Assembly (NCBI GenBank): GCA_012103575.1
Contig: WLWN01000001.1
Coordinates: 1,676,538 to 1,740,537 of the forward strand
Direction of reading: 5' to 3'
Length of the DNA stretch: 64,000 bases
Source of the DNA: Kiritimatiellia bacterium
GTDB lineage: Bacteria > Verrucomicrobiota > Kiritimatiellia > WLWN01
A program made the position numbers and the translations under genes. Below the pieces are notes generated by a model, which was not told the origin of the DNA, searched no databases, and saw only the letters and a list, made by a program, of their open reading frames with translations. This document shows positions 104 through 59,260 of the stretch, in pieces (the first letter of the stretch is position 1; each line of letters starts with the position of its first letter).

Positions 104-1170
104 TCTGCAGACTCAACTTACAAGTGCAAAACCGAAGCTGTCCATCATTTCTTTGGGCGTTCTATATTCTAAGCATTTTCTCGGTCTATTATTCAGTAAC
201 TCCACAGCCCAGCTCAACTGAGCGGAGCTGTGGGCAGCAAAGTCGGTTTTCTTCGGGAAAAACTGGCGAAGCAAACCATTCGTATTTTCGTTGGTCCCTC
301 TTTGCCAAGGGTTTCTCCCTTCAGCAAAGAAAATGGGGGTTGCTATTTTTTTCTGTAGTTTAGCATGGCTGGCAAACTCCATGCCATTATCTACAGTCAC
401 CGTTTTACAGGGGAGCCCTGAATCAGCGAACTGAGGTACGGAACGGTTGACCGATTCGGCATTGCATCGAGGTAAAAGATCGGCGATGAGATATCGAGTC
501 GCTCGATCTACTAGAGTGACTACACAGGCCTCTTTTCTCGTTTGGCCCTGAATAGTGTCACCTTCCCAATGGCCTGCCACCTTGCGACTTTCACCCTCTT
601 CGGGGCGTTGGTCAATCATCGTTTGGTTGTGTATACGTGAATGGCTTTTCCGAGTCGCTCGTTTTTTCTTTCCGGGGCCACGCAGGTATTTTCGGTAGCC
701 AGCCCCTCTTGGACTGTACAAGTAGCGGTAGATCGTCATTCGACTGATGGGAGGGTCACCTTCTAGCTTTCTTCGACCTTCAATCTGTTCTGGAGACCAA
801 TACTTCGCCAGGAGAGTCTCCACTTGTTCTTTGCTAGCTCCCATCACTTTTTGAGGCTTTCGAGCTAGCTGTAATCGGCTTTGAGCCAGGCCATTTGCGG
901 GTCTTGGGTAATAGCGGCCACGGACTCGATTACGGCGAAATTCGCGCCAAATAGTCGAGGGGGATCGGCCCAGGCGACGGCCAATTTGAGATAAGCTATA
1001 TTTTTCTTTTAGCATCTGGGCTATCACTTCTCGTTCATAACGGTTTAAATGTTCGTAGGTTCGTGGCATTCTATGTTCTCCTTTGGGGGGGGGTCAGATA
1101 CCCAAAGAATGAACTATGCTGCGGACCTTTGCACTTGTATTGTTACTCTACCCCTTTTCTGCACCTAATG
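104..1170 (-). mobile_element. IS30-family insertion sequence, type A, copy 1
   Basis: Near-identical to 15137-16196. The ends carry the inverted repeats tacaagtgcaaa and tttgcacttgta. It encodes a 318-aa DDE transposase. Confidence 0.8.
113..1069 (-). CDS. IS30-family transposase
   Basis: 318-aa ORF with an N-terminal HTH and a DDE region containing HWEGD and DNGMEF motifs. A second copy lies at 15225-16100. Confidence 0.9.
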   Translation of the reverse strand: MPRTYEHLNRYEREVIAQMLKEKYSLSQIGRRLGRSPSTIWREFRRNRVRGRYYPRPANGLAQSRLQLARKPQKVMGASKEQVETLLAKYWSPEQIEGRRKLEGDPPISRMTIYRYLYSPRGAGYRKYLRGPGKKKRATRKSHSRIHNQTMIDQRPEEGESRKVAGHWEGDTIQGQTRKEACVVTLVDRATRYLIADLLPRCNAESVNRSVPQFADSGLPCKTVTVDNGMEFASHAKLQKKIATPIFFAEGRNPWQRGTNENTNGLLRQFFPKKTDFAAHSSAQLSWAVELLNNRPRKCLEYRTPKEMMDSFGFALVS

Positions 1171-2447
1171 CAAGTGCAGGTGTCAGGATCGAAGGGCGTG
1201 ATTCAACCATTGGGGGGTCTAACGCCCTTGACAGAAATATCATATCAAGAAACCTCTATGGCATTCATCTTACGAATGTAAGTGCTACTGGTAATACGAT
1301 TATTGGAAATTATATCGGTACAGATTCTTCTGGGACGATCGTTATGGGGAATACGAGCAAAGGGATATTTCTCGAAAATGGGGCCCATGGGAATACAGTG
1401 GGTGCTGATACTTTGGCTGCGGGAAATGTGATTGGAGGAAGTTTTGTAGGCGTCGAAATTTTGGCAGGCAGTGGTAATAATAAAGTGTTGGGTAATCAGA
1501 TCGGCTCAACTTTAGGGGGTCGAACTATTCCTAACATAACAGGCGTTTTTATAAGTGGATCGTCAAGTAATGTTGTAGGAGGATTAACCCGCGAGGAAGG
1601 TAATTTGATCGTTCAGAATACTTTTCTTGGAGTAAATATTACAACGGGAGATGACAATGGAATAGTAGGGAATGTGATCTATGACAATCCATCGGGTTCT
1701 ATCTCTTTATCATCTGGAGGCAATGAATCACAGGTTGCCCCAGTCATCACGAATGCTATAAACGATGGAACGAATACAATTGTGACTGGGACATTTGATG
1801 CAAGCTTACAGACGACCTATCGCTTGGAGTTTTTTGCCAACAGTTCTTGTTCCGGCGGCGGAGAGGCGGAGAGATTTCTTGGAGCTGAAATTCATTCTGG
1901 TGGCTTTTTCTCAAGGGTAACAAATTTCAGCGCAGTATTACCGCTTGTTCCTGCCGGTGACTGGGTCTCAGCAATAGCCACTAAAACAAGTTCAGGATTT
2001 TTCATTCAAGTAAGCCATAATGACACTTCGGAAATCTCTCTCTGTGTTCCTATAGCATTATTAGACGATGCCGATATGGACGGGGTTCCTGATCAGTGGG
2101 AGGTCGCTCATGGTTCCGATACGAACATCAATGATTCAGGGGATGATCTGGATGGGGATTCGTTCACTACATATGAAGAATATGTATGGGATACCGTTGC
2201 AAATAATTCGAATAGTTTCCCACAGATCACTTCGGTTTCCAATACTTCCGACGATGTTATGGTCTCTTTTCCTTCTTCTTCAAACCGTTTCTTCAAACTA
2301 CAAGCCAACGAGAATTTAACGGATACAAACGGCTGGCAATCCTTAAGCATTAACGCCGTGCAGGAGATTGGCGGTACGCAGACGATTGATGATCCAGATG
2401 CTGATTCCTTTGGTCAACGGTCTTACCGGATAACAGGAGGGTTTTAG
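1116..2447 (+). pseudogene. Right-handed parallel beta-helix repeat protein, 5'-truncated; its first 18 codons come from the IS30 terminus
   Basis: The ATG and the MLRTFALVLLLY start lie inside the IS30 right end (1116-1170). The body carries GN.IG beta-helix repeats and C-terminal DxDxDG-type calcium-binding motifs. The paralog at 2658 has about 300 extra N-terminal residues and a signal peptide. Confidence 0.5.
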
Positions 2448-2657
2448 GAGACGAAGAGTCAAAGGTCTGAAGGTCGAAGGTTGGGAAAAGAGTGTGTTAG
2501 AAACCGGTTTTTTGGTTAGGATATGGAATGCGGTAGCTGGCTACCGCTTTTCTTCCACGCAGAAAGTTGCGTGGTCGTGTCTTCGACTTTTCCGCCGCGA
2601 CGGATCAGCCTATGGCTAAAGACTTTTGACTTTTAGACCTTAGACTCTTTTAAAAAA

Positions 2658-4941
2658 ATGAAACGAATACGAATAATCTTTAGTTTTGTTTGGATGATGG
2701 GAATGAGTACTTGGGTTGCGCAAGGGATAACCGGAACCGTTGCGAATACGAGTGACAGTGGTGTGGGGTCATTCCGAGATGCCATTCAGCAGATCAATGC
2801 GAGTAGTGATGCCTCTAATGTGACCAACTTCGACATTCCAGGGGCTACACCCCATGTCATTTTTCAAACCAGTATTGATGGATGGCCAGCGATTACAAAT
2901 CAAGTGCTTATTGATGGATATAGTGAACCGGATTATGCCAGATCTCCGGTGGTTGTGCTGCAATACCTTCCTGGTGCTGGCGAAGAAGGGTTGAAGATAC
3001 AAGGAAACGGCAGTATTGTGCAAGGGTTACAGATTGCTGACTTTGAAGATTCTTTTGTTTGTTGCGGGATTTCCCTTAATGCTGATAACTGTGTCGTAGA
3101 GGGATGTCATATTTTCAGCAACGGAACAGGTATCTCTGTTCTTGGCAATGTCAATGTTATAGGTGGCACGAACGGAAATATCGTTTCTGGAAATCCAAAT
3201 ACGGGTATAGAGCTAATTTCTAGTTCAAATGATGTTTTGGGGAACTATATTGGAACAGATATAACAGGGACTACTAGTGGGGGCAGCCAAGCCGCAGGTA
3301 TAGGATTATCTAGTCTATCATCGCATAACACCATTGGAGGAACGTCTGAGTGGATGCGCAATATTATTTCGGGGAATAGTATAGGTATTAGAGCATAGCA
3401 GGTTCTAACCATCTTGTCTGCGGTAATTACATCGGAACCGATAAAGATGGATTAACGGCGGTCCCGAACACCCAGGGAATAGGTATCTTTTCTCCTAGTC
3501 ATGTCATCGGACCAGAAGATGTGATCGGCGGAAATGTAGAAGAGGGAATTTTAATAAGTAACACGGGGCCTAATAATAAAATTATTGGCAATCAAATTGG
3601 AATTCACACAGTGACGGGGACTACCTTTTCGATTTCTAATCTAGGTAACGGAATCCAAATGGAAAGTAGTGGGAATGTTGTGGGCGGGTCTAACACCGTA
3701 GACCGAAATTTTATCGGTGGGAACATAGGCTTTGGAGTCTATATGCTGGAAAGCAACGCCTTCAATAATGCCGTGATCGGCAATTATATTGGAACGGGTA
3801 TATCTGAAGCGAAAGGCTTTGGACATAGCTTCGGAATACGGATTGTGTCCTCTGCAAATAATAATCAGATAGGGGGACCCAATGTTGCTGAAGGGAATCT
3901 AATCGTAGGCAGTACATCTGTAGGGGTGGCCATTACGAGCTCCAGTTCGAACAGGGTTACGGGAAATCGCATTGGGCGGTCATTGGCAGGAAACACGATT
4001 CCAAATCAAGTAGGTGTATTTATCGAAGGTTCGAGTAGCAACAATACGGTCGGCGGGACTAATTAGTGGAGAAGGGAATCTGATAGCCGGAAATGATACA
4101 GAGGGGGTCTTCATCCAAGGAAGTTCTTCTATTGACAATGGAGTGTTGGGAAATTTGATATATGACAATGATGGTGCTGGAATGGGCTCTGACTCAATCA
4201 GCTTGGCAAGCGGTGCGAATGAGTCACAAACGAATCCTGTTATTACGAGCGTCATTAATAACGGGTTTAATACGCTTGCAAGTGAGACATTGGATGCGAG
4301 CTCGCTGACGACCTATCGCTTGGAATTCTTTGCCAACAGTTCTCCTTGTTTGATTGGTACGGGAGAGGGCGAGAGGTTTCTTGGGACCGAAAATTTAGAT
4401 AGTTTTTTTGGTAACAGTTTTTCTGTAACTTTACCACATGTTCCTGAAGGCGGTTTTGTTTCCGCAACAGCAACCAAAATAAGTTCAGGCATTTTCTTTC
4501 CGGAGAGTCATAATGACACTTCAGAAATGTCACCTTGTGTGCCCGTAGTCTTATTTAGTGATGGCGATAACGACGGCATTCCAGATCAGTGGTAGAATGC
4601 TAGTGGCGCTAATTCAAGTCTCGATGATTCAGGGATTGATACAGATGGCGATTCATTTACTACCTATGAAGAATATGTATGGGATACAGATGCAGGTGAT
4701 GTGAATAGTTTTCCACAGATTACATCGGTTTCTAACGGACCTGGAAACGTCATGGTTTCTTTCCCTTCCTCTTCAACCCGTTTCTTCCAATTAGAAGCCA
4801 ATACAAGTCTAACCAATGCAAACGGGGTGGCATCCATTGACCATTCAAGCTGTGCAGGGAATTGACGGTACGCAGACGCTTTCTGACCCCGATACGGGTT
4901 CATTCGATCAACGGTTTCATCGGGTTCAGGGAGGGTTCTAG
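2658..4941 (+). pseudogene. Tandem paralog of the beta-helix repeat protein, carrying a signal peptide and multiple frameshifts plus an in-frame TAG
   Basis: Reading continuity passes through the ORFs 2658-3398, 3521-4066 and 4014-4595 and the downstream frame. Frameshifts sit near 3395 and 4060. At 4593-4595 the sequence reads DQW*, where copy 1 has DQWE. The C-terminus is colinear with copy 1. Confidence 0.6.
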
Positions 4942-7430: not shown

Positions 7431-10004
7431 ATGGGAAAAAATCTTGTTATTGTAGAATCGCCGGCCAAGGCAAAGACTATTAATAAAATCTTGGGAAAGG
7501 ATTTTATTGTAAAAGCGTCTATGGGCCATGTTCGTGATTTGCCTCAAAAGAAGCTCGGGGTAGATATTGAGAACGATTTTACACCGGAATATGTCACCCT
7601 TAAAGGCCGTCAGAAAATCGTTCAAGAACTGACCCAAGCCGCGAAAGGTGTGGATGGAGTCTATCTCGCTCCTGATCCTGACCGAGAAGGAGAAGCGATT
7701 GCTTGGCATCTTGTAGAGGCTTTAAAGAAAAAACTTTCACCCGATCAATTCTTTCGGGTTACGTATAATGAAATTACCGCACCGGCCATTCGACATGCTT
7801 TTTCAAATCCTTCTGAAATTGACAATAAAAAAGTCGATGCACAACAAGCTAGACGAGTCTTGGACCGAATCGTAGGCTATAAGGTCAGCCCGCTTTTATG
7901 GCGACGTATCAAGGGAGGGTCAAGCGCCGGGCGGGTTCAATCTGTGGCTTTACGGTTGGTGTGCGAGCGAGAGCAAGAGATCGAGAGCTTTGTGCCTAAA
8001 GAATACTGGTTACTAGGCGCGAACACCTGCAAACAAGTAGACCATCGGGATCCTTTTGAAATTCGGTTAGTAAAGATTGATGGGGAAAACCCTGAGATCG
8101 GTAGCGCTGAACAGGCTGAACACATAGAAAAAGACCTCGAAGGACGCACCCTTAAAGTCTCCGAGATTAAGTTACGTGAAATTTCCAAAAAAGCACGAGC
8201 CCCTTATATTACCAGTACCTTGCAACAGGCGGCTTCAACCCTGTTAGGATATAATCCTTCTCGGACCATGAGCATTGCTCAACGGCTCTATGAAGGATTG
8301 GATGGGGTGGGTTTAATAACGTATATGCGAACGGACTCGGTTTCGATTGCAAAAGAAGCGCAAGGGGCCTGTTTAAAGTTTGTGGAAGAAACATTTGGCA
8401 ACGAGTATGTTCCCGGGAAACCCAATTTTTTCAAAAGTAAGTCCAGCGCCCAAGAAGCTCACGAAGCGATTCGACCTACGGATGTAGGGCGCACGCCTGA
8501 AGCATTAAAGTCGGTGTTACAACCTGAGGAACTTAAGTTATACAAAATTATTTGGGAACGTTTTGTGGCAAGTCAAATGGCACCGGCCCGCATTGCTCAA
8601 CGATCCGTAGATATTGATGCCATTTCCACAGAAGAAAAGAAGGACAAAACCTCTTACCTGTTCAGGGTTTCAACATCAGATATTTTGTTTCCCGGGTATA
8701 TGAAAGTTGCAGGGGTTGAAAAAAGTAAAAGTAAAAAATCCGAAGATGGAAACATCGATGAAGAGGGGCATCAAACCGACAAAATCCCTCCTCTTACGGA
8801 AGGAGAGACGCTCGATTGCCTTGAATGGCTAAAAGAGCAAAAATTCACTCAACCGCCGCCACGATATACGGAGGCCTCATTGGTTCGGACCCTCGAAGAA
8901 AACAGGGTAGGACGACCCAGTACGTATGCCCAGACCATCGCGACATTGAACCAAAGAGAATATGTCGAGCGAGAAAAAAGAGCGTTAAAACCCACTGAAT
9001 CGGGCAAACAGGTTAACGAGTTTTTAGTAAAAAATCTTGATGCATTATTTAATGTTGGTTTTACCGCAGGGATGGAAGAAGCCCTGGACGGGATTGAAAA
9101 GGGGACGATCAATTGGACTCAGATGTTGAAAGACTTTTATGCTGATTTTTCGGGATGGGTAGATAAAGCGAAAGGCCTTCCAGCGGATCCTGAGACCGTC
9201 CAAAAAATCTTGACGATATCGGAAGAGATTAAAGAATGGTCGCCTCCTACAAAACGAGGGAAACGGACCTATAGCGATGAAACGTTTGCTCAGTCGATCG
9301 AAAAACGATTGAAAGAAGAAAAAGAAATTTCTATGCGTCAGCTGGATGCGTTGAAGAAAATGATATGTCAGTACAAAGGCCAATTGCCCGAACTAGAACA
9401 ACGGGCTGAAGAATTAGGTATCACCGAAGAGTTAAGAGAAGCCAGTATTCCAAAAGACCCCCCCCGCGACGAAACCGTAAGAAAGTTAGATCTACTCAAG
9501 GATATCCATTTTGCGGAACCGAAAAAAGTCGGCAAAAGGACCTATGACGACAAAGCTTTTTCTGAGTCTTTAAGACAACAAGTAGAATCAGGGAAACGTT
9601 TATCGGTGAATCAGATTCGATACCTCGATCAATTATTTATGAAATATGCGGGTCAGATTGAAAACTTTGAGACGGTATCCAAAGAGCTTTGCTTGAATAC
9701 TGAGCCAGCGGAAGAAGATAAAAAAAATGGACCCGTTCTTGATCTTTTTAATTATGTGGAAAAATGGTTTCCTCCTCTTCAGCGAGGGAAACGAACATGG
9801 GATGATAAAGAATTCTTCGAATCACTTAAGCAACAGTTTAAGGCTAAAAAAACATTAAGCCCTCGACAGTTATCGGCCTTGAGAAAAATGGCAAAACGGT
9901 ATGCGGATCAAATCCCTAATTTTGATGAAATTCGGGAACAGTACGGATTGCCTGAACGAGGCAAGCCAAAAGAGAAAAAACCTGAAGAGACGAAAGCTGA
10001 ATAA
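7431..10004 (+). CDS. topA: DNA topoisomerase I with a triplicated C-terminal module
   Basis: There is a Toprim N-terminus (LVIVESPAKAKTI) and a topo IA core with the RPSTYA active-site tyrosine region. The C-terminal 250 aa consist of three repeats of a KRGKRTY.D..F..S...LS..Q...L.KM...Y..QI.NF module. Confidence 0.9.
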   Translation: MGKNLVIVESPAKAKTINKILGKDFIVKASMGHVRDLPQKKLGVDIENDFTPEYVTLKGRQKIVQELTQAAKGVDGVYLAPDPDREGEAIAWHLVEALKKKLSPDQFFRVTYNEITAPAIRHAFSNPSEIDNKKVDAQQARRVLDRIVGYKVSPLLWRRIKGGSSAGRVQSVALRLVCEREQEIESFVPKEYWLLGANTCKQVDHRDPFEIRLVKIDGENPEIGSAEQAEHIEKDLEGRTLKVSEIKLREISKKARAPYITSTLQQAASTLLGYNPSRTMSIAQRLYEGLDGVGLITYMRTDSVSIAKEAQGACLKFVEETFGNEYVPGKPNFFKSKSSAQEAHEAIRPTDVGRTPEALKSVLQPEELKLYKIIWERFVASQMAPARIAQRSVDIDAISTEEKKDKTSYLFRVSTSDILFPGYMKVAGVEKSKSKKSEDGNIDEEGHQTDKIPPLTEGETLDCLEWLKEQKFTQPPPRYTEASLVRTLEENRVGRPSTYAQTIATLNQREYVEREKRALKPTESGKQVNEFLVKNLDALFNVGFTAGMEEALDGIEKGTINWTQMLKDFYADFSGWVDKAKGLPADPETVQKILTISEEIKEWSPPTKRGKRTYSDETFAQSIEKRLKEEKEISMRQLDALKKMICQYKGQLPELEQRAEELGITEELREASIPKDPPRDETVRKLDLLKDIHFAEPKKVGKRTYDDKAFSESLRQQVESGKRLSVNQIRYLDQLFMKYAGQIENFETVSKELCLNTEPAEEDKKNGPVLDLFNYVEKWFPPLQRGKRTWDDKEFFESLKQQFKAKKTLSPRQLSALRKMAKRYADQIPNFDEIREQYGLPERGKPKEKKPEETKAE

Positions 10005-13838: not shown

Positions 13839-13907
13839 TGGATAACCTTATATGATACATTTAATTTCATTAGATAACGGTGGACTTTCTAATATGACAC
13901 GCCTATA

Positions 13908-15053
13908 GAAGACAAAAAAAAGAGAAAGACATGGAACAAATCAAGAGTAGTATTCATCCCCGAAAAGGCAAGCATTTGACACAGAAAGAACGGATCATGA
14001 TTGAAACAATGCTCAAAAACCGAGGACGTCCTTTGGAGATAGCCAGCTATCTGGGAAGGCATCGTCGAACCATAGAGCGCGAAATTAAACGTGGGGAGGT
14101 AGAGCATTTCGATACAGAGCTGCGAAAGAAGAAAGCATACAGCAGTGATCGAGCCCAGGAACTTCATGATCTAAATGCGACGGCCAAGGGACCTGAGCTT
14201 AAGCTTGGAAAGCATCATGAAACGGCCGTGTTTATCAGCGAGCACATTCTTGTTCACAAACGCTCACCCGATGTGGTTGCTCCTTTGCTTAAACAAGAGC
14301 AGAGACCTGCAGCGGTGAGTACAAAAACGCTGTATACCTATATTGACCAAGGTCTCATCCCGGGGGTGAGCAACGAGTCCCTATGGGAAAAACGAAAACG
14401 GATAAAACGAAAAAGACGTGCTATTAAGCGGGTTAAAAAGCAACATGCCCGAAGGACCAGTATCGAAAAACGACCTAAGACCGTAGAAAAACGCGAGGAA
14501 TCTGGGCACTGGGAATTGGATTTGATCGTCGGCGGAAAAGGAACTTCAAAACCGGTTTTAATGACGTTAGTAGAAAGAAAGACCCGAATGCTAAGGGTGA
14601 GAAAACTTTCGGATAAAACACAGGCATCGGTTCTGCAGGCCCTCAAAGCGATCGAAAGATCGATGGGAGTTGGCCCATTCAGATCGATGTTCAAGTCGAT
14701 TACAGCCGATAACGGGAGCGAGTTTCTCGACGTGGAGCAGATGGAACGTTCCGGATTTAGCAAAAAGAGACGTGTTAAACTCTATTATGCTCACCCGTAT
14801 TCTTCCTGGGAACGAGGCTCCAACGAAAATGCCAACCGTATGGTTTGTCGTTTCGTCGCCAAAGGAGACAACATCGGAAAATATACCATCGACCGTATTG
14901 GTGAGATTGAAAAATGGATTAACAACTATCCTCGCAAGATCCTAGAATACAAACCCGCACAGGAGTGTTTCGATTTGGAGATCGCCGCATGAACAGAAGC
15001 TCTCAGGTCCATTTTTTGCGGCATTTAATTTTACAATCCACCTTGGTGATTTG
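13908..15053 (+). mobile_element. IS30-family insertion sequence, type B, copy with a truncated left end
   Basis: Near-identical to 42078-43283 from 13908 onward. The right end (ggcatttaattttacaatccacc) is shared with the other copy, while the left terminal repeat present in that copy (ttgtaatattaaatgcc) is missing here. Confidence 0.7.
13931..14992 (+). CDS. IS30-family transposase, type B
   Basis: 353-aa ORF with an HTH, HWELD and DNGSEF DDE motifs. It is 98% identical to 42188-43234, apart from a 15-bp indel in a KRKR repeat. Confidence 0.85.
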   Translation: MEQIKSSIHPRKGKHLTQKERIMIETMLKNRGRPLEIASYLGRHRRTIEREIKRGEVEHFDTELRKKKAYSSDRAQELHDLNATAKGPELKLGKHHETAVFISEHILVHKRSPDVVAPLLKQEQRPAAVSTKTLYTYIDQGLIPGVSNESLWEKRKRIKRKRRAIKRVKKQHARRTSIEKRPKTVEKREESGHWELDLIVGGKGTSKPVLMTLVERKTRMLRVRKLSDKTQASVLQALKAIERSMGVGPFRSMFKSITADNGSEFLDVEQMERSGFSKKRRVKLYYAHPYSSWERGSNENANRMVCRFVAKGDNIGKYTIDRIGEIEKWINNYPRKILEYKPAQECFDLEIAA

Positions 15054-15136: not shown

Positions 15137-16196
15137 CTGCAGACTCAACTTACAAGTGCAAAACCGAAGCTGTCCATCATTTCTTTGGGCGTTCTATATT
15201 CTAAGCATTTTCTCGGTCTATTATTCAGTAACTCCACAGCCATCTCAACTGAGCGGAGCTGCGGGCAGCAAAGTCGGTTTTCTTCGGGAAAAACTGGCGA
15301 AGCAAACCATTCGTGTTTTCGTTGCTCCCTCTTTGCCAAGGGTTTCTCCCTTCAGCAAAGAAAATGGGGGTTGCTATTTTTTTCTGTAGTTTAGCATGGC
15401 TGGCAAACTCCATGCCATTATCTACAGTCACCGTTTTACAGGGGAGCCCTGAATCAGCGAACTGAGGTACGGAACGGTTGACCGATTCGGCATTGCATCG
15501 AGGTAAAAGATCGGCGATGAGATATCGAGTCGCTCGATCTACTAGAGTGACTACACAGGCCTCTTTTCTCGTTTGGCCCTGAATAGTGTCACCTTCCCAA
15601 TGGCCTGCCACCTTGCGACTTTCACCCTCTTCGGGGCGTTGGTCAATCATCGTTTGGTTGTGTATACGTGAATGGCTTTTCCGAGTCGCTCGTTTTTTCT
15701 TTCCGGGGCCACGCAGGTATTTTCGGTAGCCAGCCCCTCTTGGACTGTACAAGTAGCGGTAGATCGTCATTCGACTGATGGGAGGGTCACCTTCTAGCTT
15801 TCTTCGACCTTCAACCTGTTCTGGAGACCAATACTTCGCCAGGAGAGTCTCCACTTGTTCTTTGCTAGCTCCCATCACTTTTTGAGGCTTTCGAGCTAGC
15901 TGTAATCGGCTTTGAGCCAGGCCATTTGCGGGTCTTGGGTAATAGCGGCCACGGACTCGATTACGGCGAAATTCGCGCCAAATAGTCGAGGGGGATCGGC
16001 CCAGGTGACGGCCAATTTGAGATAAGCTATATTTTTCTTTTAGCATCTGGGCTATCACTTCTCGTTCATAACGGTTTAAATGTTCGTAGGTTCGTGGCAT
16101 TCTATGTTCTCCTTTGGGGAGGGTCAGATACCCAAAGAATGAACTATGCTGCGGACCTTTGCACTTGTATTGTTACTCTACCAAAAACGTAGTGTT
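15137..16196 (-). mobile_element. IS30-family insertion sequence, type A, copy 2
   Basis: The same terminal sequences as 104-1170 are present. The flanking DNA differs. Confidence 0.8.
15225..16100 (-). pseudogene. IS30-family transposase, type A, with a frameshifted C-terminus
   Basis: Identical to 113-1069 except that the last ~30 aa shift frame. The intact C-terminus (VELLNNRPRKCLEYRTPKEMMDSFGFALVS) is encoded by the overlapping ORF 15145-15339. Confidence 0.7.
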
Positions 16197-17380: not shown

Positions 17381-19037
17381 CTGAATCCGTTAGCTATCGC
17401 TTCGGAAGGCGTTTTGGGGCTCAAAAGCTGAAAATTTTTTCCTTGAGATGCTCGCTTTTGGGCGGATTGGGACCGGCAAGTATCACCCTGATGAATTTTT
17501 TGAGCGTACAGGTCAGATTCACTCTGATTTGGCCATTTTGGGGCGTAGGCCTCCTTGGGCAGTCGCCTTAGAGTATTGTTAAAGGTGCACGGAGGGCTAT
17601 GCGAAGGAATGGGCAATATCTTGTATCACTTCAAACCAGCGACAACGCTTGCCAAAGTGAAGTTCAATTCGTCCGGCGTGGCGGACCAATCGAACCGCGC
17701 AATAAACGATATTTTTGAGAACCGTTTTGATTCGCCAGCGCGGGATGTTGATTTTCTGCGGGGCAAGCCCAGCCCGTTTGATGACCTCTTGGCCAAGACC
17801 GCGCAATAGGTTGAAGGCCACCATGGCGCATAACAGAATAATCTTATTGGCACAGGGTCTCCCCGAAGGCAATCGCTCAACATCAAGATCGCTTTTGAGT
17901 TCACTGTGGTACTGCTCGCTGGGGCCATGTCCATGATAGAGATCTAGCACCGTCTTGGCACGACAAGAGAGGTTCGTCCACCAGGTGTTCACCTCAAGTT
18001 TAGGAACCAAAAGTTTCTGACCATCGATATCGATGGTGCGTTCAATCACTTCGAAGGCCACCGGGACACAAGGGTGGTTTTGGTCACCACCGGGATGGAA
18101 ATGATCGAAAAAGCCTGTGTAAACGTTCTTGCCTTCACGACTGTCTTGTTTGTCTCCAACTCGGCGTGCAAGGGCCAGCATTTGTTCAGGACATTCGCGG
18201 CGAGGATTTCGCTTTACGATAAAATAATGATCCCCAAAAGCGTCGAAGTTATCGGCCGCAGCGTTGCCACTATCAAGCCGAAGCAAACATTTTCCACCCA
18301 GGCCCAGGGTTTGGAGCGTTTCAACGCTGCGGGCAATAAACGCGGTCGTTCCCGACTGACAATGTTGTTTGCCGGGTCGAAGTTCGCACTCAAGCATGTG
18401 GCCTTGAGTGCCCACATAGGCAAATATCGGGGCGTAACCATCATGGCCCTTATAGGTGTAGGAAACGCCTTCTTTCGAAGAGCCTGAGTGATCCAAAGGG
18501 CTCACATCGATATCGACGGGAACAAGATCAAGCCCTTCGACATCTACCTAGCCAAAGGGGCCCGAGGAAAGAAGTTCGGTGTTGAGTTTGCGTAGCCCCA
18601 CATGGGTTCTGGCTGGGGGCAGGTCGTCGAAACGACGTCGGAACACCGGCTCAGAGGCTACTTTTTTAACTCCCCTTTTTAAGTCTAAAGGCATTCATAA
18701 AAATCTCATCACCCCGGTACAGGTCGATATCATTGAAATCGGTTCGACCGTTGCAAAGTAAGCCGATCTGGGTAAGGAGGATCTCCCGATCAGAGATCGC
18801 ATCGGAGCGGCGTGGTTGAAAATTGGAGGGAAGAATCCGTTGAGCATGATCCTCAAGCAGCAGGCCGCAAAGATGATTTCCGCTTGTGCTGTTGAGTTCG
18901 CTCTTGCCAGTCTTTATTTTATATTGTTTCATATACACACCTGTTGGGGTGGGGTTGTTTGTTTGAATACGGGTATGCTCCCCGCTTTAGCCCAACAGGT
19001 AATGAAAAATCGTCAGATTTTATCTGACGGATTCAGG
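17381..19037 (-). mobile_element. IS1380-family insertion sequence, copy 1
   Basis: The terminal inverted repeats are CCTGAATCCGTCAG and CTGACGGATTCAGG. The element is flanked by ATTGAC on both sides, a candidate target-site duplication. It is near-identical to 56075-57730. Confidence 0.75.
17597..18938 (-). pseudogene. IS1380-family transposase, frameshifted
   Basis: The N-terminal 90 aa are encoded by 18666-18938 and the C-terminal 302 aa by 17597-18505. The two parts lie in different frames. Confidence 0.7.
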
Positions 19038-19198: not shown

Positions 19199-19275
19199 TG
19201 GTGGCGAAGGTGGGACTCGAACCCACGACACATGGCTTATGAAGCCACTGCTCTAACCGACTGAGCTACTTCGCC
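19199..19275 (-). tRNA. tRNA with anticodon CAU (elongator tRNA-Met or tRNA-Ile2)
   Basis: The minus-strand sequence reads GGCGAAGTAGCTCAGTCGGTTAGAGCAGTGGCTTCATAAGCCAC...GGGTTCGAGTCCCACCTTCGCCACCA. This is a full cloverleaf with anticodon loop TTCATAA and an encoded CCA. The G1-C72 pair argues against initiator identity. Confidence 0.85.
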
Positions 19276-19324
19276 ACAAAAAACATATAACCGTAAGGAA
19301 GTATAATAGGCTTTGTCAATACTC

Positions 19325-19360
19325 AGCCATTCTAATTTTGATTTCAAAATTAGAATGGCT
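19325..19360. repeat. Perfect 36-bp AT-rich hairpin (16-bp stem, 4-nt loop) placed directly upstream of the tRNA promoter region
   Basis: The sequence is AGCCATTCTAATTTTGATTTCAAAATTAGAATGGCT. It is followed (in the tRNA direction) by TTGACA about 35 bp before the tRNA 5' end. A related copy lies at 37683-37718. Confidence 0.6.
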
Positions 19361-19545
19361 CGTTCTTTGTTGTTGGTTCTTCTTTAATGGGAAGTTATTT
19401 TTTTAGTACAGATCAAATATGATCATGAACATATATAACCTACATTCAGCGATAAGGAACAGCCCGTCGTACCCATCCCTTGATCCGCCTAGCATTAGGT
19501 AAAGAATCTTGACCCACTAATAGATAACTAATAACTATTCCCAAC

Positions 19546-21201
19546 ATGCTAACCTCTTTGCGTATAAAAAACCTTGCTCTTGTCCAAGATCTTCGTATTC
19601 CGTTTCAATCGGGTCTTAATGTCATTACAGGAGAAACGGGCGCCGGTAAATCTATCCTGATGGGCGCTTTGAAATTGTTACTGGGTGAGCGGGCCGATAA
19701 ATCGGCGATTCGTTCGGGGGAAGATGCTTGCCTGGTCGACGCGGTGTTTGAATTTCCGTCCACCACATCATTCGATGCTCTTCTTGCAGAAAATGGGGTG
19801 GATATGTGTGAAGGAATGCAATTGGTTATCCGTCGCATTATTAAAGCCTCGGGTACGAGCCAAAACATGGTGAATGATTGTCCTGTTACCTTACAATTGC
19901 TTAAACGACTCGGGGCCCTATTAGTGGATATGTACGGTGTCTATGACCATCAATCTCTCTTACATACCGATACACAACTTGATATACTCGATGCCTTTGG
20001 CTGTATCGACAAAGAACGCAAAGCGTATGAAAAAAAATATCGCGATTTTTGGGCGCTTGAGAAACGCAAACAAGAACTTTTGCAAAACCATGAAGATGTG
20101 GAAGCGCAGATCGATTTACTATCCTATCGCGTAAAGGAAATTGAAGACGCGGCTTTAGCAGAAAATGAAGAAGAAAAAATTCGGCAAGAACATACGATAA
20201 TGGGTCATGCGCAACGTATTCTTGAATTATCGAATACAGCGCTCACGATGCTAACAGAAAACGAAGATTCTGTATTTAATACGTTAACCCATACGCAACG
20301 AATGCTAGATGAGTTAAGCCGACTGGTCCCCGACGCAGAGGATTGGAAACAGGAGCTTCATGGTTTAACGGTGCAGGAGTTGGGGACAACCATTCAGAGC
20401 TTTGTAAGTGGCATAGAAAGCGATCCTGCACGGTTACACTGGTTAGATGAACGATTAGCCTTGTATCAAAAAATGAAACGTAAACACGGGAACACTGTCT
20501 CTGAAATATTCGAAACCTTAGAAGCCTCAAAAAAACGCTTGAAAGATTTGAAAACTCGTAGCGAGCAGTTGGCTGATATAGAAAAAAATATGGAGCATAT
20601 TTATTCTCAGCTTGAACAGACAGGGAACATATTGAGAGATAAGCGCCAGCAGGTATCCGGGGGGCTTTCAAAGAACATTACAAAAGAGCTAAAAGAATTA
20701 GGATTTTCACATAGAGCCTTTCGTATCCGCTTAAGCGCAACGACTCCGCAAACGTCGGGCATGGATGAGATTGAATTTGAATTTGCGCCCAATGCAGGGG
20801 AGTCTCATTATCCTTTACGTGCGATTGCTTCTAGTGGCGAAATTTCTCGTGTGATGTTGGCTACAAAAGCCGTTTTGGCAAAACACGATAAAATCCCTTT
20901 GTTGGTCTTTGATGAAGTCGATGCGCATATCGGGGGCGAAATGGGTACTGCTGTTGGGTGTAAATTGTCAGAGATTTCAACGTATCATCAGGTGATTGTC
21001 ATTACGCATTTGCCACAAGTGGCCGTTTTTGGAAATACACACTTTGCGGTCAGCAAAGACGTAAAAGGAAACCGTACGTTTACGAATATTGAAACCATAG
21101 AAAAAGAGGGTCGTGTTGAAGAAATTGCACGGATGTTGGGAGGAAAGAAGATGACGGATGTAACCCTTCAACATGCACGTGAAATGCTCAAGCAGGCATA
21201 A
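19546..21201 (+). CDS. recN: DNA repair protein RecN
   Basis: N-terminal Walker A motif (GETGAGKS), a long coiled-coil middle region, and a C-terminal signature plus Walker B (LLVFDEVDAHIGG). Confidence 0.9.
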   Translation: MLTSLRIKNLALVQDLRIPFQSGLNVITGETGAGKSILMGALKLLLGERADKSAIRSGEDACLVDAVFEFPSTTSFDALLAENGVDMCEGMQLVIRRIIKASGTSQNMVNDCPVTLQLLKRLGALLVDMYGVYDHQSLLHTDTQLDILDAFGCIDKERKAYEKKYRDFWALEKRKQELLQNHEDVEAQIDLLSYRVKEIEDAALAENEEEKIRQEHTIMGHAQRILELSNTALTMLTENEDSVFNTLTHTQRMLDELSRLVPDAEDWKQELHGLTVQELGTTIQSFVSGIESDPARLHWLDERLALYQKMKRKHGNTVSEIFETLEASKKRLKDLKTRSEQLADIEKNMEHIYSQLEQTGNILRDKRQQVSGGLSKNITKELKELGFSHRAFRIRLSATTPQTSGMDEIEFEFAPNAGESHYPLRAIASSGEISRVMLATKAVLAKHDKIPLLVFDEVDAHIGGEMGTAVGCKLSEISTYHQVIVITHLPQVAVFGNTHFAVSKDVKGNRTFTNIETIEKEGRVEEIARMLGGKKMTDVTLQHAREMLKQA

Positions 21202-28271: not shown

Positions 28272-28446
28272 AAGAAGTTCAGGTTTTCTGAAAACGCTAC
28301 TTGGACCTTCGTCAAAAGCGCGAATTCAAGTAGTAAGTGCAATATTCTTTGAGATAAGAGAAATGAAAACTTTATTGAACATTTGGTTAGGAGTTTTGTA
28401 TCCACGGGTTTTTCTGGGTCTATTATTAGAGCGCTTCACGATTGAG

Positions 28447-29417
28447 GTGTCGCGATGTAGCACGAAGAAAACCAGCCGATTACCTCGTCGGGAGAAACCT
28501 CTTCGAACGCTTGTGTGAGCGCTTCAGATAGTTCCTGCGGGCTGCAAGGCTGCCCAACCGATTCTTTATCTTGCCCCACATTTTTTCAATGGGGTTGGAA
28601 TCGGGGCTGTAGGGTGGAAGGAATCTTACATGGGCCCCACATGACTCAATGAGTTTAATGACCTTGGGATTGTGATGGACGCGAAGATTGTCCATGATGA
28701 CGATGTCTTCAGGTGAAAGAGTCGGGAGAAAAACCCGGCGAATATATTCTCCAAAAACAGCCGTGTCTGTCGCCCCCTCCCTCTCCATGGCCGCTGTTGT
28801 TCCGTCCAGGCGGACTGAAAAAATCAAGGTGGTGGTACACCAATGTCCATGAGGCGTTTTGGCAAAAAGCCTGTTCCCGCCCAACGCCCGGCCCCGCAGA
28901 CAAGTCATATTCGTTTTCGCCCCGGATTCATCAATAAAGACAAGGCGACTTGGATCAAGTTTGGCTACCTCTTGGATCCACTGCTTTCTCAAGAGATTTA
29001 CATCCGCCCGGTCTTGCTCGCTGGCGTGAAGCGTTTCTTTTATACCGGCAGCCCAACCGATTCAACGCCCGCTGTACGGCCATGATCGACCCCTTCACGC
29101 CGCTCATGTTCTTGAGTTCTTCAAGCGTTGCATCGGGATGTTTGCCCCCCAGTTGAGCCAACGCCTTGAGCTGCTCGCTGTAGAGGGCCTGACGATGCCC
29201 ACGCGGTCGGGGAGCGGTCTGTCCGGTTTCGTTGAAACGAGAGAGCCCACGCTGAAACGTTCTAAGATCTACACGATAAGAAGATACGATATCGGCCTGG
29301 GAACCTTTGCCCATTTTGTAGGCATCTATCGCACGCCGCCGGATTTCTGCTGTTGCTATACTCATGTCATGGAGCATAGATCTTCTAAAGAGGCATTTCA
29401 ATCGTTAAATGCTCTAG
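28447..29417 (-). mobile_element. IS630/Tc1-family insertion sequence, copy 1 (degenerate)
   Basis: Ends TAGAGCGCTTCACGATTGAG and CAATCGTTAAATGCTCTAG form terminal inverted repeats next to TA. The transposase frames (28480-28992 and 28955-29401) are frameshifted and carry the DDE region HWCTTTLI...VRLDGT. A second copy lies at 45006-45949. Confidence 0.7.
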
Positions 29418-29926
29418 CTTTGCCTTGGCCATTGAGCTCACGAAATTTGTATATAGCAACAGTACTTTCTTTACTGCTCTCTTGGTATGCAAAAAATGCA
29501 GCTACGTATGGCGACCGAGTCCAATCTAGTAAAGGCGTCGGAAAACCATGATGCCGAATATAAACCATAAATCCGTAATTCTCAGGAGATGAAGGTTCAT
29601 CTCTATTCTCAAATACTGTTTCCCAGTTTTGATCTGTTAGCGATTCAAATGCCGCGATTGTCGGCTTAAGGATCTTTGTGTTGTATTCTATGATTGCAAG
29701 TAGTTCATCGTTTCGTCTTTCAAGTGTCGATTCAAGTTTCCACGAAGCACATTTATGGCCCCTAAAGAGGAGCTCGGAAAAATAGTAGTCCGCTTTGCTA
29801 AGGCGCTGCTCACCCTTTTGTAATTCCTTTTAGCCCAAATGGTTCGTGCAGAAAACCGCGTTTAACTGACGGATCCAGGATAGAGTTATCTGGAATTAAT
29901 TCGGTATATCTTTTTGACATAGACAT
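29398..29926 (-). pseudogene. Disrupted small gene encoding an FRG-motif protein, sitting in the cassette position upstream of intI
   Basis: There is a 144-codon open frame (29398-29829) with no start codon, reading ...YYFSELLFRGHKCASWKLESTLERR...YIRHHGFPTPLLDWTRSPYVAAFFAY.... An ATG-initiated 15-codon segment (29926 downward) lies in another frame. A partial 163-bp-family repeat sits between the two segments. The C-terminal codons run into the IS630 terminal repeat. Confidence 0.4.
29813..29879. repeat. Partial (one-arm) copy of the 163-bp palindromic repeat family
   Basis: ttttgtaattccttttagcccaaatggttcgtgcagaaaaccgcgtttaactgacggatccagg matches one arm of the elements at 44474, 51319 and 58518. 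The left boundary is approximate. Confidence 0.5.
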
Positions 29927-36471: not shown

Positions 36472-37386
36472 ATGAATCCATTAAAAAAAATATACAATAT
36501 TTACCGAAAAATATTTTCCGAAGAAGAGAATATTACGTTGATCGACGGTTGTCCAATTGCGTTTGTCCATTTAGTATGCCTGACCATCCCATGGGTCGGG
36601 TTTAGCGTGACGGCGGTGATCGCTTGTTTTGCGGCATATGCATTACGTGTATTTTCGCTTACAGGAGGGTATCACAGATATTTTTCACACCGGTCCTATA
36701 AAACAAGTCGTGTTTTTCAATTTATACTTGCGTTTCTAGGTGGCTCAGCAGCACAATTAGGTGCCCTTTGGTGGGCGGCCCATCATCGGCATCATCATGA
36801 ACATTCTGACACCAAGAAAGATATCCACTCTCCACACCGCCGGGGCTTCTTTTTCGCGCATATTGGATGGGTGTTATGTGACCGTTATTCGGAGACACAA
36901 CTCGAACACATAGGGGACTTTGCTCGCTATCCTGAATTACGGTTCCTGAATCGTTTCCATATTATTCCTCCCTTAACCTTAGGTCTCATCATGTACGGGC
37001 TCGGATACTTTTTTCAGACTCATTATCCTCATTTGAATACGTCCCCTTGGCAAATGGTGGTATGGGGATTCTTTGTGAGTACGGTACTGGTCTACCACGC
37101 AACTTTTTGTATTAACTCCGTCACTCATATGATGGGGAAAAAACGATTTCGCATTAAAGACGATAGTCGAAACAGTTTTTTACTTGCTTTTTTAACCATG
37201 GGAGAAGGGTGGCATAACAACCATCATCGATATCCTATGGCCACTCGACAGGGGCTTTATTGGTGGGAAATTGATATGACCTACTACATCCTCGTCCTGC
37301 TTTCCAAGCTGGGTCTCATATGGGATTTACAAAAACATCCCCAAATGATCTACGAAGAAGCACGTCAAATCAAACAAGATATATAA
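36472..37386 (+). CDS. Membrane fatty-acid desaturase (acyl-lipid/acyl-CoA delta-9-type)
   Basis: Three histidine boxes (HRYFSH, HHRHHH, HNNHH) and four predicted TM segments. Confidence 0.8.
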   Translation: MNPLKKIYNIYRKIFSEEENITLIDGCPIAFVHLVCLTIPWVGFSVTAVIACFAAYALRVFSLTGGYHRYFSHRSYKTSRVFQFILAFLGGSAAQLGALWWAAHHRHHHEHSDTKKDIHSPHRRGFFFAHIGWVLCDRYSETQLEHIGDFARYPELRFLNRFHIIPPLTLGLIMYGLGYFFQTHYPHLNTSPWQMVVWGFFVSTVLVYHATFCINSVTHMMGKKRFRIKDDSRNSFLLAFLTMGEGWHNNHHRYPMATRQGLYWWEIDMTYYILVLLSKLGLIWDLQKHPQMIYEEARQIKQDI

Positions 37387-37682
37387 GGCAGTCGGGATTG
37401 TAAAATCTGGAGAAAGATAAAGCCCAAGGTCTTGAAGGCGAGGTGAATTACTTTAAGGCGCACCGCGACCCTATAGATTATCAGGCTGCTAAATGAGGGG
37501 GTTGCCCTAAAGGGTCTGGAGCCATGGAATCGACCTGTGCCCAATTCCAAACCCGATTCAAACGAACCGGTCAATTTTGGATACCTCCTAGAAAGCATCA
37601 CTTAATCGCTCTGGAATTAGCACGGCAGAATCATGACGGGGATGATATTTGGTAGTATGACCCAGATGCGCCTCAAATAACT

Positions 37683-37718
37683 AGCCGTTCTAATTTTGAT
37701 TTCAAATTTCAAATGGCT
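37683..37718. repeat. Imperfect copy of the AT-rich hairpin, again directly upstream of a tRNA promoter-like hexamer
   Basis: AGCCGTTCTAATTTTGATTTCAAATTTCAAATGGCT, with TTGACT at 37724-37729 and tRNA-Val starting at 37768. Confidence 0.45.
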
Positions 37719-37767
37719 GTGACTTGACTTCGTAAAGCAGACCGTTAAGCTACCCCTCTTATTTTTC

Positions 37768-37842
37768 GGGCGGTTAGCTCAGCGGGAGAGCGGCTGGTTT
37801 ACACCCAGTAGGTCACAGGTTCGAATCCTGTACCGCCCACCA
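37768..37842 (+). tRNA. tRNA-Val (anticodon UAC)
   Basis: GGGCGGTTAGCTCAGCGGGAGAGCGGCTGGTTTACACCCAGTAGGTCACAGGTTCGAATCCTGTACCGCCCACCA. Anticodon loop TTTACAC; CCA encoded. Confidence 0.9.
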
Positions 37843-39908: not shown

Positions 39909-41288
39909 TCACCTATTGGCGGGGAGTTCAACAAGTTGATATCCCAATTCTTTTGCCGTCTTTGCCATAGAAAAAAACCGTCTGGCCTTAAAACGTTCTT
40001 GGTAGACTTTTTCCCCCTCGTCTACATAATCTTGTCCGTAATGCAGCGTTCGATAAATGAGTATGGCCAGTTTACGTGCAAGAGCAAATACGGCCACGGC
40101 TCCACTCCTACGCCGAGCTACCCGACGATATTCAGCCCCCAAAGAGGAGTGTGATCGACTCAAAGAAACCACCGCCATTCGCAAGATTCCAGCCACCCGA
40201 TTTGAACCCGTACCACGAGGGGGCTTTTTCTTGAGAGCTTTTCCTCCAGAAATCCCCATCTTTGGACAAAGCCTCAACCAACTCACAAAATGTTTTTTCG
40301 AAGAAAAATCACTCAGATTAAATCCCACCTCGGTAAGTATGACTTGCGAAACTCCAGCGCTTATCCCGTCAATACGCGTTAAATCTACTCCGGAAAATTG
40401 CCACAATATTTTTTGGTCTTCCTGCTCTCCTCGGTTACGTATCGCTTTTCGTTTAGCGGCTTTAGGATGCTCAGGGGCCTCTTTATTTTTCCGTTCTTGC
40501 GGAGTCATCGCTAACAACTCCTTGTGCAGTTCTTGCTCGTAATCGGTAATCTGTGCTTGGAGTTGGTCATAGAGCTTTAGGGCCATTTTAAGGTTAAACA
40601 AATGCTCTGATTTCCACGTACCGGTGAGGTGCTCAGCTATTTCTTTTTCGTTTTTTCCGCAACGAGAATCTCGCAAACACGCAAGGACTTTGGGGTCACG
40701 TTGACCTTCAACAATCCCACGTACAATCGCTAAGCCTGTTTTCCCGGTAATATCTGTTAGGGCTCGATGAACTTGGACATTCATTTGATCCAAAGCCTTT
40801 TGCATCCAGTTGACGGTTTTGGAACGTTCCTTAACCAGATTGGCACATTGGCGAGTCAATGCGCGGCATCTACAAATGCCTTCACTCGGTCGAAAGGATC
40901 CATGTAATAGGCCACAGCTGTGTAGAAGCTGAATCCATTGACAGTCCTGTACATCGGTTTTACGACCCGGGACATGGCACAGTTCTCTGGCGTTGACCAA
41001 GATGGGCTCTATTCCAGAAGCCTCCAGCAGTTCGTACAAAGGGATCCAGTAAATCCCTGTACTTTCCATGGCCACCGACTTTACTCCTTGCTCTTGGAGC
41101 CAAGCGATCAGTCCGATTAATTGGGGTGTAGTGGATTGAAAAACACGCACGTTGGGTTCGCCGCTGATCAAGGCCGGACCACATACGTAATGCTCGCAAG
41201 CCCCCAAATCAATTCCAGCCACCTTCGGTTGGAGTATGGGTAAGCTTTGCACGGATCGTTTATTTACCTTTGTTTTTGATGCCGACAT
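39909..41288 (-). CDS. IS110-family transposase (DEDD type)
   Basis: 459 aa with an N-terminal RuvC-like fold (AGIDLGACEHYV, KSVAMESTGIYWIPL) and the C-terminal IS110 region. The element extends to roughly 39880-41540. Confidence 0.85.
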   Translation of the reverse strand: MSASKTKVNKRSVQSLPILQPKVAGIDLGACEHYVCGPALISGEPNVRVFQSTTPQLIGLIAWLQEQGVKSVAMESTGIYWIPLYELLEASGIEPILVNARELCHVPGRKTDVQDCQWIQLLHSCGLLHGSFRPSEGICRCRALTRQCANLVKERSKTVNWMQKALDQMNVQVHRALTDITGKTGLAIVRGIVEGQRDPKVLACLRDSRCGKNEKEIAEHLTGTWKSEHLFNLKMALKLYDQLQAQITDYEQELHKELLAMTPQERKNKEAPEHPKAAKRKAIRNRGEQEDQKILWQFSGVDLTRIDGISAGVSQVILTEVGFNLSDFSSKKHFVSWLRLCPKMGISGGKALKKKPPRGTGSNRVAGILRMAVVSLSRSHSSLGAEYRRVARRRSGAVAVFALARKLAILIYRTLHYGQDYVDEGEKVYQERFKARRFFSMAKTAKELGYQLVELPANR

Positions 41289-42030: not shown

Positions 42031-42077
42031 GATATTGCTATTTTTCAAAAAGTCAATTTTTTGTTTCAAAAAAATCT

Positions 42078-44438: not shown

Positions 44439-44473
44439 AAATTTGAAAGATAACAAGAGGGCTCTGTCTTTTT

Positions 44474-47136: not shown

Positions 47137-47324
47137 GAGGAGATATAAGCAATTCTACATTAGAATGGCTAGTTATTTGTTTTGCAAGAGCCTGTTGCCT
47201 CATTAAAAAATGACACCGTAGCATATTAAAACTCGTTGACACTTATCACCAATACTTGTTGGACCCATTTCTGTCAAGAAATGGGTCGGGTGGATGCCTT
47301 TCTGTTCATTCTTTTACCTTCCAG

Positions 47325-47395
47325 GAGTTATCCACAGATCCGTCCCGGCGAGAATGGGCCCCATTCGCTCGTCGGAGGCGGGACGGATCTGTGGG
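47325..47395. repeat. Roughly 66-bp near-perfect hairpin
   Basis: CCACAGATCCGTCCCG...CGGGACGGATCTGTGG, with an inner stem GCGAGAATGGG/CCCATTCGCTCG. Confidence 0.5.
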
Positions 47396-47512
47396 TAACT
47401 CCGTGGTTGACTTTCACCTTTGCCTTTTTCGCCATGTTTTTGACTTCGCCTCAAAAAACGACCGCCCCAGATGCCCTGTATCCAACGATCTCTCAGAAGG
47501 CTTTGTCTTCTT

Positions 47513-48736
47513 TTATAAGAGAGCATTACCCCACGAAACTTCTGGAGATCCTTTCAAGTCAGGAGGGTGTTTTTTTAACCGTTCAATCTTTCGGAGATGC
47601 TCCTCGATCTGCTTTTTGAGCTTGTAGGGGTCCAAAACTTCATATTGACCTTCGAGGGCCTTGACTTGTTCAAGACCAAGCAGTTGGCTCTGAACCAGTC
47701 GCTCATAAGGGGTCTTGGCTTTGTCATATTTTTTGATATACCGGCTTTGGATCCGCTTTTTGGACTTCAGCTTCATCGATGGACAAAAAAAATTGTTATA
47801 CTTTTCCCAGACAACATAGAGGTGGTTGATGACATCAACCAGATCAGGGTGTTCGAGTCGATCATACCCCAAACGTTGACGAACATGGGTCCAGTTCTTT
47901 TGTTCTACATGGGCATTATCATTTTTATGGTAGCTCCGTGACCGCGTATAGCCTACCGGCTTTTGACGGTTGCTAAAATAACGAACCAGGTGCCAATTTA
48001 AGAACTCCGAACCGTTGTCGGTATCGAATCCCAAAAGAGAAAAAGGGAGTTTTTCCTCTACGTCTTGGGTTTGCTTTTGAATCCCTCCATATCCTTTGTT
48101 CCAAACGGCACGTTGGGCCGTTCAACCCGTTACAATATCGGTATAGGTAATCGACCAGATGAAGTTTCCGCTCATCGATCCCCCACAATGGGCGACGGTG
48201 TCAGCTTCCAAATAGCCCGGTTGTTGAATATCCTGGTTGTCGATCCGCACAGGGATTTGATTTTTCAGGGTAGATCCTGGCTTCGTTGCGCTGTTTCGAT
48301 AGCGTCTATACCGGCTCCTTTCTGAGGCTAATAATCGGTCAATAGTCGCTGGACTTATATCGAGCAATTTAGAACGAATGGGGGCCGATAAAGCGCTATA
48401 GTGTTTGCTATAATCTCTGAGCCAGATCGGTAAAGCTTGTTGCAAACGTTTGCCGAACAGGCGCCCTGTTTGGTGCCAGATCGTTTTCAAAGCGGCTAAA
48501 AATTCAGGGTTGGCATAATAGCTTTTTCGGCCACGCTGCTTGGCCGAACGACGGATTTTTCCGCCGAGCAGTTTAATGGCGTATTTACGCTCATAGCCAC
48601 AGACTTGGCATACTTCATCAATGAGGCGTGTTTTATATCGTTTGCTGGCCCGTTTATACCGGTGACCCATTCGATGTATATATTCTTTTCTCGATTCGTA
48701 ACTCATACTTTTCATGCCCCCCTTTTTGGGTGTCAT
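47513..48736 (-). pseudogene. DDE (rve-superfamily) transposase/integrase, frameshifted
   Basis: N-terminal HTH part (48122-48736, ...YLEADTVAHCGGS) and C-terminal part (47513-48034, FDTDNGSEF...) lie in different frames. The IS family is uncertain (IS481- or ISNCY-like). Confidence 0.65.
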
Positions 48737-49009
48737 CTTTTATGAGTCAACGAATCTTTACGGCTCCTAACCGTTTTTCGCTACGGTGTCATTTTTTGTG
48801 AGGCAATTCGAGAGGCTCCAAATTTCAAATTTTGGTTTGCACCGCAAGATAATGATTGTTAGCGTATTTTTCTAGCTGTGCTAGACGGGGAGGTAGCGGT
48901 GCCCTGACTCCCGCGTAAGCGGGATGACCTGCAATCCGCTGTAGCAGGGTTTAATTCCTGAGTAAGATATCAACCTAGGATGATACATGCTATAGATAGG
49001 TGTTGATAG

Positions 49010-59259: not shown

Positions 59260-59260
59260 A

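Follow-up and report, generated by a model that had tools for sequence, protein, structure and literature searches.

In Escherichia coli, the upstream regions of stable-RNA promoters such as rrn P1, tyrT and thrU/tufB combine A+T-rich sequence at the -35 hexamer (the UP element) with Fis sites, which lie one to two helical turns further upstream and in fixed phasing with the core promoter. The positions from about -41 to -58 are where the α-CTD of RNA polymerase or class-I activators act, and class-I operators, such as that of CRP at -61.5, place a dyad on a fixed helix face relative to the -35. Palindromic sequences of a different origin occur as REP/BIME repeats and as MITEs with promoter parts, for example the Correia elements of Neisseria, which are short, imperfect, extragenic repeats of IS-rich genomes. 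REP/RAYT copies are numerous, extragenic and typically located at 3′ ends or between convergent genes, and both the REP/RAYT and the IS200/IS605-type systems need hairpin potential. Intrinsic (Rho-independent) terminators join a strong stem to a T-rich tail. To our knowledge Fis is confined to Proteobacteria, and we know of almost nothing on promoter architecture and growth-rate control in Kiritimatiellae or related PVC bacteria.

Here we describe a partly palindromic module of about 55 bp that occurs in three copies, S1 to S3, in a 64-kb window (the whole stretch of Kiritimatiellia DNA analysed, 64,000 nucleotides). No known family matches it by sequence; in kind, it resembles either the E. 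coli stable-RNA upstream regions or the small palindromic repeats. As in the former, A+T-rich sequence adjoins the -35, a block resembling a protein site lies one to two helical turns further upstream, the phasing with the core promoter is fixed, and the organism's RpoA has the α-CTD contact residues. Unlike those regions, the module has no significant match to the UP consensus, consists of a 36-bp near-perfect palindrome where Fis sites are degenerate 15-mers, and is 80% identical between copies over 55 bp. A dyad near -59 on a fixed helix face relative to the -35 recalls class-I operators, but the 17-bp arms are twice the usual half-site and one of them is far better conserved. The module shares with REP/BIME repeats and MITEs the character of a short imperfect palindromic extragenic repeat in an IS-rich genome and, like the Correia elements, may provide a -35-like TTG from its edge. 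It differs from them in that no GTAG tetranucleotide, target-site duplication or transposase partner was seen, in occurring in 5′ regions only, and in having lost hairpin potential in two of three copies. The plus strand of S1 does offer the strong stem and T-rich tail of an intrinsic terminator, but in the wrong orientation for the neighboring genes, and S2 and S3 have no stable stem.

The window has a G+C content of about 44% (A+T about 55%) and contains three stable-RNA genes, tRNA-Met(CAT), tRNA-Val(TAC) and SRP RNA; tRNAs and SRP RNA are also its only Rfam matches at the gathering score. After the source organism's own RecN, the next best in a database search is only 58-59% identical, indicating that the databases contain no close relatives; the M29 peptidase of the nearest relative is 80% identical. 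The features at the two tRNA genes and at surE are as follows.

19199..19275, minus strand: tRNA-Met (CAT), with an elongator-type acceptor stem
19290-19295 and 19314..19319, minus strand: predicted tRNA-Met promoter, -10-like TACGGT and -35-like TTGACA, spacer N18
19325..19360, minus strand: S1, a perfect inverted repeat (17-2-17) upstream of tRNA-Met, at about -41 to -76 from the putative start site
19361..19369, minus strand: conserved 9-bp extension of S1 on its gene-distal side, CAAAGAACG (minus strand)
37674..37682, plus strand: conserved 9-bp extension of S2, CAAATAACT
37683..37718, plus strand: S2 palindrome, with the distal arm intact (one change) and three mispairs and one G:T in the proximal arm
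37724..37729 and 37746-37751, plus strand: predicted tRNA-Val promoter, -35-like TTGACT and -10-like TAAGCT, spacer N16
37768..37842, plus strand: tRNA-Val (TAC)
47148..47179, minus strand: S3, a short palindrome with a 9-bp stem, including the 23-mer block (47179..47157)

No perfect inverted repeat in the window is as long as S1 (AGCCATTCTAATTTTGA-TT-TCAAAATTAGAATGGCT); the runner-up has arms of 11 nt. The preliminary description of this DNA presented S1 as a perfect 36-bp palindrome; its 17-nt arms are perfect, but the 2-nt center is not self-complementary. Its location beside tRNA-CAU and a TTGACA hexamer was correctly recognized, except that tRNA-Met and TTGACA lie on the minus strand. Read on that strand, S1 is followed by 5 bp, by TTGACA (19319..19314) and by 38 bp to the tRNA-Met 5′ end. 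The second distance replaces an earlier value of 35 bp. S2, in which 13/17 arm positions are paired, is followed in the same way by 5 bp, TTGACT and 38 bp to the tRNA-Val 5′ end, so that the matching position and orientation proposed for it hold with spacing identical to the base. Each of the two tRNA genes in the window has the module at one and the same offset, which upholds the suggested link with tRNA promoters. S3 (AGCAATTCTAcatTAGAATGGCT) is indeed a shorter version just upstream of surE, 12 bp from the ATG (47136, minus strand), but its coordinates had to be corrected to 47148-47170. Its geometry differs from that at the tRNA genes: the block begins 43 bp from the surE ATG, no TTGAC follows, and the proximal arm is largely missing. 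On the other side of S3, 10 bp away, is an IS-like element, with its left end nearest. Independent metagenome assemblies of the organism reproduce S1, S2 and S3 without a difference, so that these are not assembly artefacts; all three copies are confirmed as real and non-random at the coordinates given here.

The element common to S1, S2 and S3 is a 23-mer, CAAAKAACKAGCCRTTCTAATKT, made up of the gene-distal arm and 9 bp beyond it, for which a scan of the window at ≤3 mismatches returns 3 matches, where 0.00 are expected. Aligned in the direction of the downstream gene, the three copies share the unit CAAAKAACK-AGCCRTTCTAAT-KT. Pairwise identities among the copies are 24-25/29 (83-86% over 29 bp), and S1 and S2 agree at 44/55 positions from CAAA through TTGAC. 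Outside these 55 bp the two are unrelated on both sides, with the similarity ending at TTGAC. Because the stretch from the -35 to the tRNA is unrelated in the two, the pair is not the product of a simple segmental duplication.

The secondary structure is not conserved in the same manner. Folded as RNA, S1 reaches -21.5 kcal/mol (z = -6.7 vs shuffled sequences), while S2 and S3 do not surpass shuffled sequences (z from -1.5 to +0.9); with DNA parameters the z values are -7.8 for S1, -1.3 for S2 and -2.6 for S3. No compensatory changes are seen. Since hairpin stability is not kept and compensation is lacking, constraint or common descent acts on the duplex sequence and not on a stem-loop. The "conserved hairpin" of the preliminary description thus gives way to a conserved sequence, with S1 the only copy that folds better than shuffled RNA.

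A strict consensus promoter scan does not call the stable-RNA promoters, as their -10 hexamers are too weak. All of the predicted stable-RNA -10 hexamers read TAnnnT with a G/C-rich middle, which may be a lineage trait of strong promoters; the orthologous tRNA-Met promoter predicted in the nearest relative (contig L052) consists of TTGACA, N17 and TAGCCT (~8817-8822). The three 45-bp stretches that precede the -35 hexamers are 64-69% A+T, compared with the window average of about 55%. Scored against the E. coli UP-element consensus NNAAAWWTWTTTTNNNAAANNN, they attain at best 9, 7 and 6 of 14, and scores of ≥9 occur at 10% of background positions. The RpoA of the source organism retains the α-CTD DNA-contact motifs SVRAANCL and FGKKSL, which correspond to the R265/N268/G296/K298/S299 determinant in E. 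coli numbering.

The reading that we rank first, and hold tentatively, is that the feature represents a lineage-specific control module of about 55 bp that acts as double-stranded DNA upstream of sigma-70-type stable-RNA promoters; its main rival is a small dispersed palindromic repeat. Base-exact phasing to the -35 at two unrelated tRNA genes, together with absence elsewhere in ~86 kb, argues for functional coupling with stable-RNA promoters, and the loss of the hairpin in the other copies points to recognition of duplex DNA sequence. The A+T-rich proximal arm (TCAAAWTTNNAAT GGCT), 5 bp upstream of the -35, would occupy about -41 to -58. The tightly conserved distal block (CAAAKAACK-AGCCRTTCTAAT), at about -58 to -85, is a good candidate protein site, and the most likely cause of the dyad symmetry is a DNA-binding protein, dimeric or multimeric, centered near -59. 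Such a putative protein would set transcription of the tRNA, and probably of the SRP RNA too. We infer the protein binding, the direction of any regulation and the start sites from sequence. DtxR-type and TetR-type genes are present in the window, with no evident link to the module. A comparison by eye gives no fit to LexA boxes, CIRCE, DtxR, CodY, ARG or IHF sites, dif or parS.

Several observations count against a control module. The sample is only three copies from the ~86 kb examined. Their identity is higher than independent sites of one regulator usually show, and conservation continues 9 bp beyond the dyad; in both respects common descent looks the closer fit. Oddly for a symmetric dimer site, the strongest conservation is confined to one arm. 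In addition, the geometry at S3 and surE differs, agreement with the UP consensus does not exceed background, and the orthologous tRNA-Met of the nearest relative has no palindrome.

The third stable-RNA gene, encoding SRP RNA, lies beyond S3 on the opposite side of the IS-like element.

47190..48816, minus strand: IS-like element of 1627 bp with terminal inverted repeats of ~33 bp
48818..48835, plus strand: A+T-rich inverted repeat CCAAATTTCAAATTTTGG, followed after 1 bp by the SRP-RNA -35
48837-48842 and 48860-48865, plus strand: predicted SRP-RNA promoter, -35 TTGCAC and -10 TAGCGT, spacer N17
48876-49160, plus strand: large-type bacterial SRP RNA (111 bits)

The SRP-RNA promoter does not carry the full module. 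In the CCAAATTTCAAATTTTGG region, 12/13 bases agree with the S2 proximal arm, and no other non-self match in the window is as good; it lies on the strand of the gene and within 3 bp of the equivalent -35 offset. A proximal-arm motif at a third stable-RNA promoter would support the coupling, but the comparison is post hoc and suggestive only. The IS-like element separates S3 from the SRP-RNA promoter and cuts the upstream region of the latter one base beyond the inverted repeat. Its left boundary is confirmed by an alternative junction in contig L069 (position 1803), and no target duplication is seen at the element. With the element simply removed, S3 would fall ~30-50 bp upstream of the SRP-RNA -35, the same span as the block occupies at the tRNA genes but inverted. 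We rejected the idea that S3 supplies the distal half lost from an IS-split SRP-RNA module, since the block reads away from the element. In view of the second left junction and the lack of a target duplication, IS-mediated recombination may be what joined S3 and the SRP-RNA gene, a suggestion to which we give little weight. Within the left end of the element is an inverted repeat with 24-nt arms (47324-47347 / 47379-47402, 96% complementary) that is unique in the window; one arm holds a perfect DnaA-box-like TTATCCACA and the other TTACCCACA. The dnaX-ybaB genes directly follow the SRP RNA, and recR is ~5 kb off (43290-43892).

No further full or partial copy of the module exists in the 64-kb window. 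Another ~22 kb of DNA from the same organism, which includes contigs L053, L058 and L069 and brings the total examined to ~86 kb, comprises the spc/alpha ribosomal operons, the ddl-ftsQA-bamA-dnaB region and the two variant junctions; it has no copy, but also no tRNA gene. The 20-mer TTAGAAYGGCTNGTTNTTTG, which matches all three window copies, returned 15 singletons from a genome collection and 29 from a metagenome collection, both without the source organism; all of these come from unrelated organisms, none is palindromic, and we regard them as only chance matches. The same 20-mer core has 0 matches in a viral collection. Three loci from distant relatives contain neither the 12-mer arm motif nor the module, and the region upstream of the orthologous tRNA-Met in the nearest relative is GC-rich. 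Relaxed Rfam thresholds around S1-S3 (E≤5) yielded noise only, and literature searches on the module found nothing relevant.

A rather doubtful but still substantial alternative is that the copies belong to a small REP-, MITE- or foldback-like dispersed palindromic repeat of common descent, either neutral or secondarily co-opted, which landed upstream of a few genes and whose end would supply or mimic the -35 TTG. The copy-to-copy identity is high and includes the 9 bp outside the dyad, the host DNA is full of mobile and repeated elements (among them a separate MITE-like family of ~170 nt), and S3 resembles a decayed or truncated copy beside a gene that is not a stable-RNA gene. The flanks are also weakly mirror-symmetric, CAA(A) vs TTG, one base out of register (6/8 positions in S2 and 4/8 in S1), so that TTGAC could itself belong to the repeat and thereby explain the fixed 5-bp spacing. 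Absence of the module from the nearest relative agrees with this reading as well. However, all copies are in 5′ regions and two of three are at tRNA promoters, no copy has a target-site duplication or flanking direct repeats, the ends of no IS in the window are similar, and there are no further copies in the ~86 kb examined. The hairpin foot has neither GTAG nor CTAC, as a GTAG-type REP signature would require, and a REP/RAYT or IS200/IS605-type system is difficult to reconcile with hairpin potential lost in two of three copies. A link to the IS110-family element at 39909-41288 was ruled out because the flanks are unrelated. The dispersed repeat and the control module are compatible, as a repeat can be co-opted.

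Of the two functions initially put forward, we now consider the terminator or insulator very unlikely, whether such a hairpin were to halt read-through into the tRNA promoter region or divergent transcription out of it. This reading draws on the plus strand of S1, where a 16-bp stem followed by CGTTCTTTGT is called terminator-like by a consensus scan, and on the T-rich extension MGTTMTTTG, which lies on the same side relative to the gene in 3/3 copies. That side always faces away from the downstream gene and so cannot shield its promoter from upstream read-through; no copy has a T-run after the stem on the gene-sense strand, the hairpins of S2 and S3 are no stabler than shuffled sequence, and the extension is kept as a specific sequence, not as mere T-richness. 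The sole terminator call, S1 (+), points away from tRNA-Met and has no plus-strand gene upstream; because tRNA-Met and recN diverge from the interval that contains S1, it has no transcription unit to end. The other function initially proposed, a putative binding site for a regulator of stable-RNA transcription, remains the best reading. Least probable of all is that the conserved arm and its extension form an outward promoter, driving for example recN, either of sigma-54-like -24/-12 type (TGGCTC-N5-TTGTT) or through the -10-like TAGAAT. The spacing in TTAGAATGGCTCGTTCTTTGTT does resemble that of the consensus TGGCAC-N5-TTGCW, and S1 and S3 have a good -10-like hexamer in TAGAAY. Yet, although the copies have the GG, they show GT, GA and GT in place of the near-invariant -12 GC, and S2 has CGGC, not TGGC. 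TAGAAT lacks a properly spaced -35, recN has its own TTGACC-N17-TAACTA next to the ATG, and S2 and S3 face no plausible gene.

If the control-module reading is true, the module would be a concrete DNA bait for finding the regulator and would mark strong promoters in uncultured genomes; if it is only a dispersed repeat, it amounts to a minor annotation note. As a lineage-specific feature of a phylum that has been little studied, it is of modest interest, and its importance hinges on its whole-genome distribution. At its most speculative, and in our judgement improbably, the control-module reading extends to a stable-RNA regulator that the PVC lineage evolved for itself as a functional analogue of Fis/UP control and that binds, in the majority of tRNA, rRNA and SRP-RNA promoters, a long palindrome centered near -59. 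The site at surE, a stationary-phase-associated gene in E. coli, would then tie growth-rate control to stationary-phase genes.

The surroundings of the module are rich in mobile DNA. The IS load is very heavy, at roughly a fifth of the window, with copies at 105-1152, 13907-14992, 15137-16182, 17381-19037, 28426-29401, 39909-41288, 41543-42031, 42164-43234, 45002-45993, 47190-48816 and 56074-57730. These include two kinds of HTH+rve transposase element (113-1069, 15225-16100, 13931-14992 and 42188-43234), a DDE_Tnp_1_4 element of 1657 bp and the IS110-family element. The MITE-like repeats of ~165-175 nt are found at 44462-44636, 51317-51482 and 58518-58693 (inverted), with a partial copy at 29816-29880; they are intergenic, 88-98% identical to one another and unrelated to the palindrome. 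Short-read contigs of the same organism (30 kb or less) break at IS copies, and two structural variants occur at IS ends, window position 41547 vs L058 8178 and window position 47190 vs L069 1803. The variant contigs, from the same metagenome project, run into a Band_7 gene or into a truncated histidine kinase and a porin, which points to IS-mediated rearrangement or strain heterogeneity.

Among the other genes of the window, the tandem diverged genes for β-helix proteins (1116-4595) are partly fragmented and have 74-76% DNA identity; the 120 best database matches include no paralogues from the same genome. In the ribosomal-protein cluster (58098-59261) the first gene is rplV, which has an IS copy and a MITE-like repeat immediately before it, and the S10 operon appears to be split, with the rpsJ-rpsS part absent upstream of rplV. 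A possible small ORF of ~66-78 amino acids (37365-37601, minus strand), with AGGAGG upstream, is oriented away from S2, overlaps a desaturase gene at the 3′ end of the latter and may be spurious. No Shine-Dalgarno sequence precedes recN or surE (regions 19509-19548 and 47134-47160). The TTGACC-N17-TAACTA of recN ends 8 nt before its ATG, and the predicted recN mRNA may be leaderless or nearly so.
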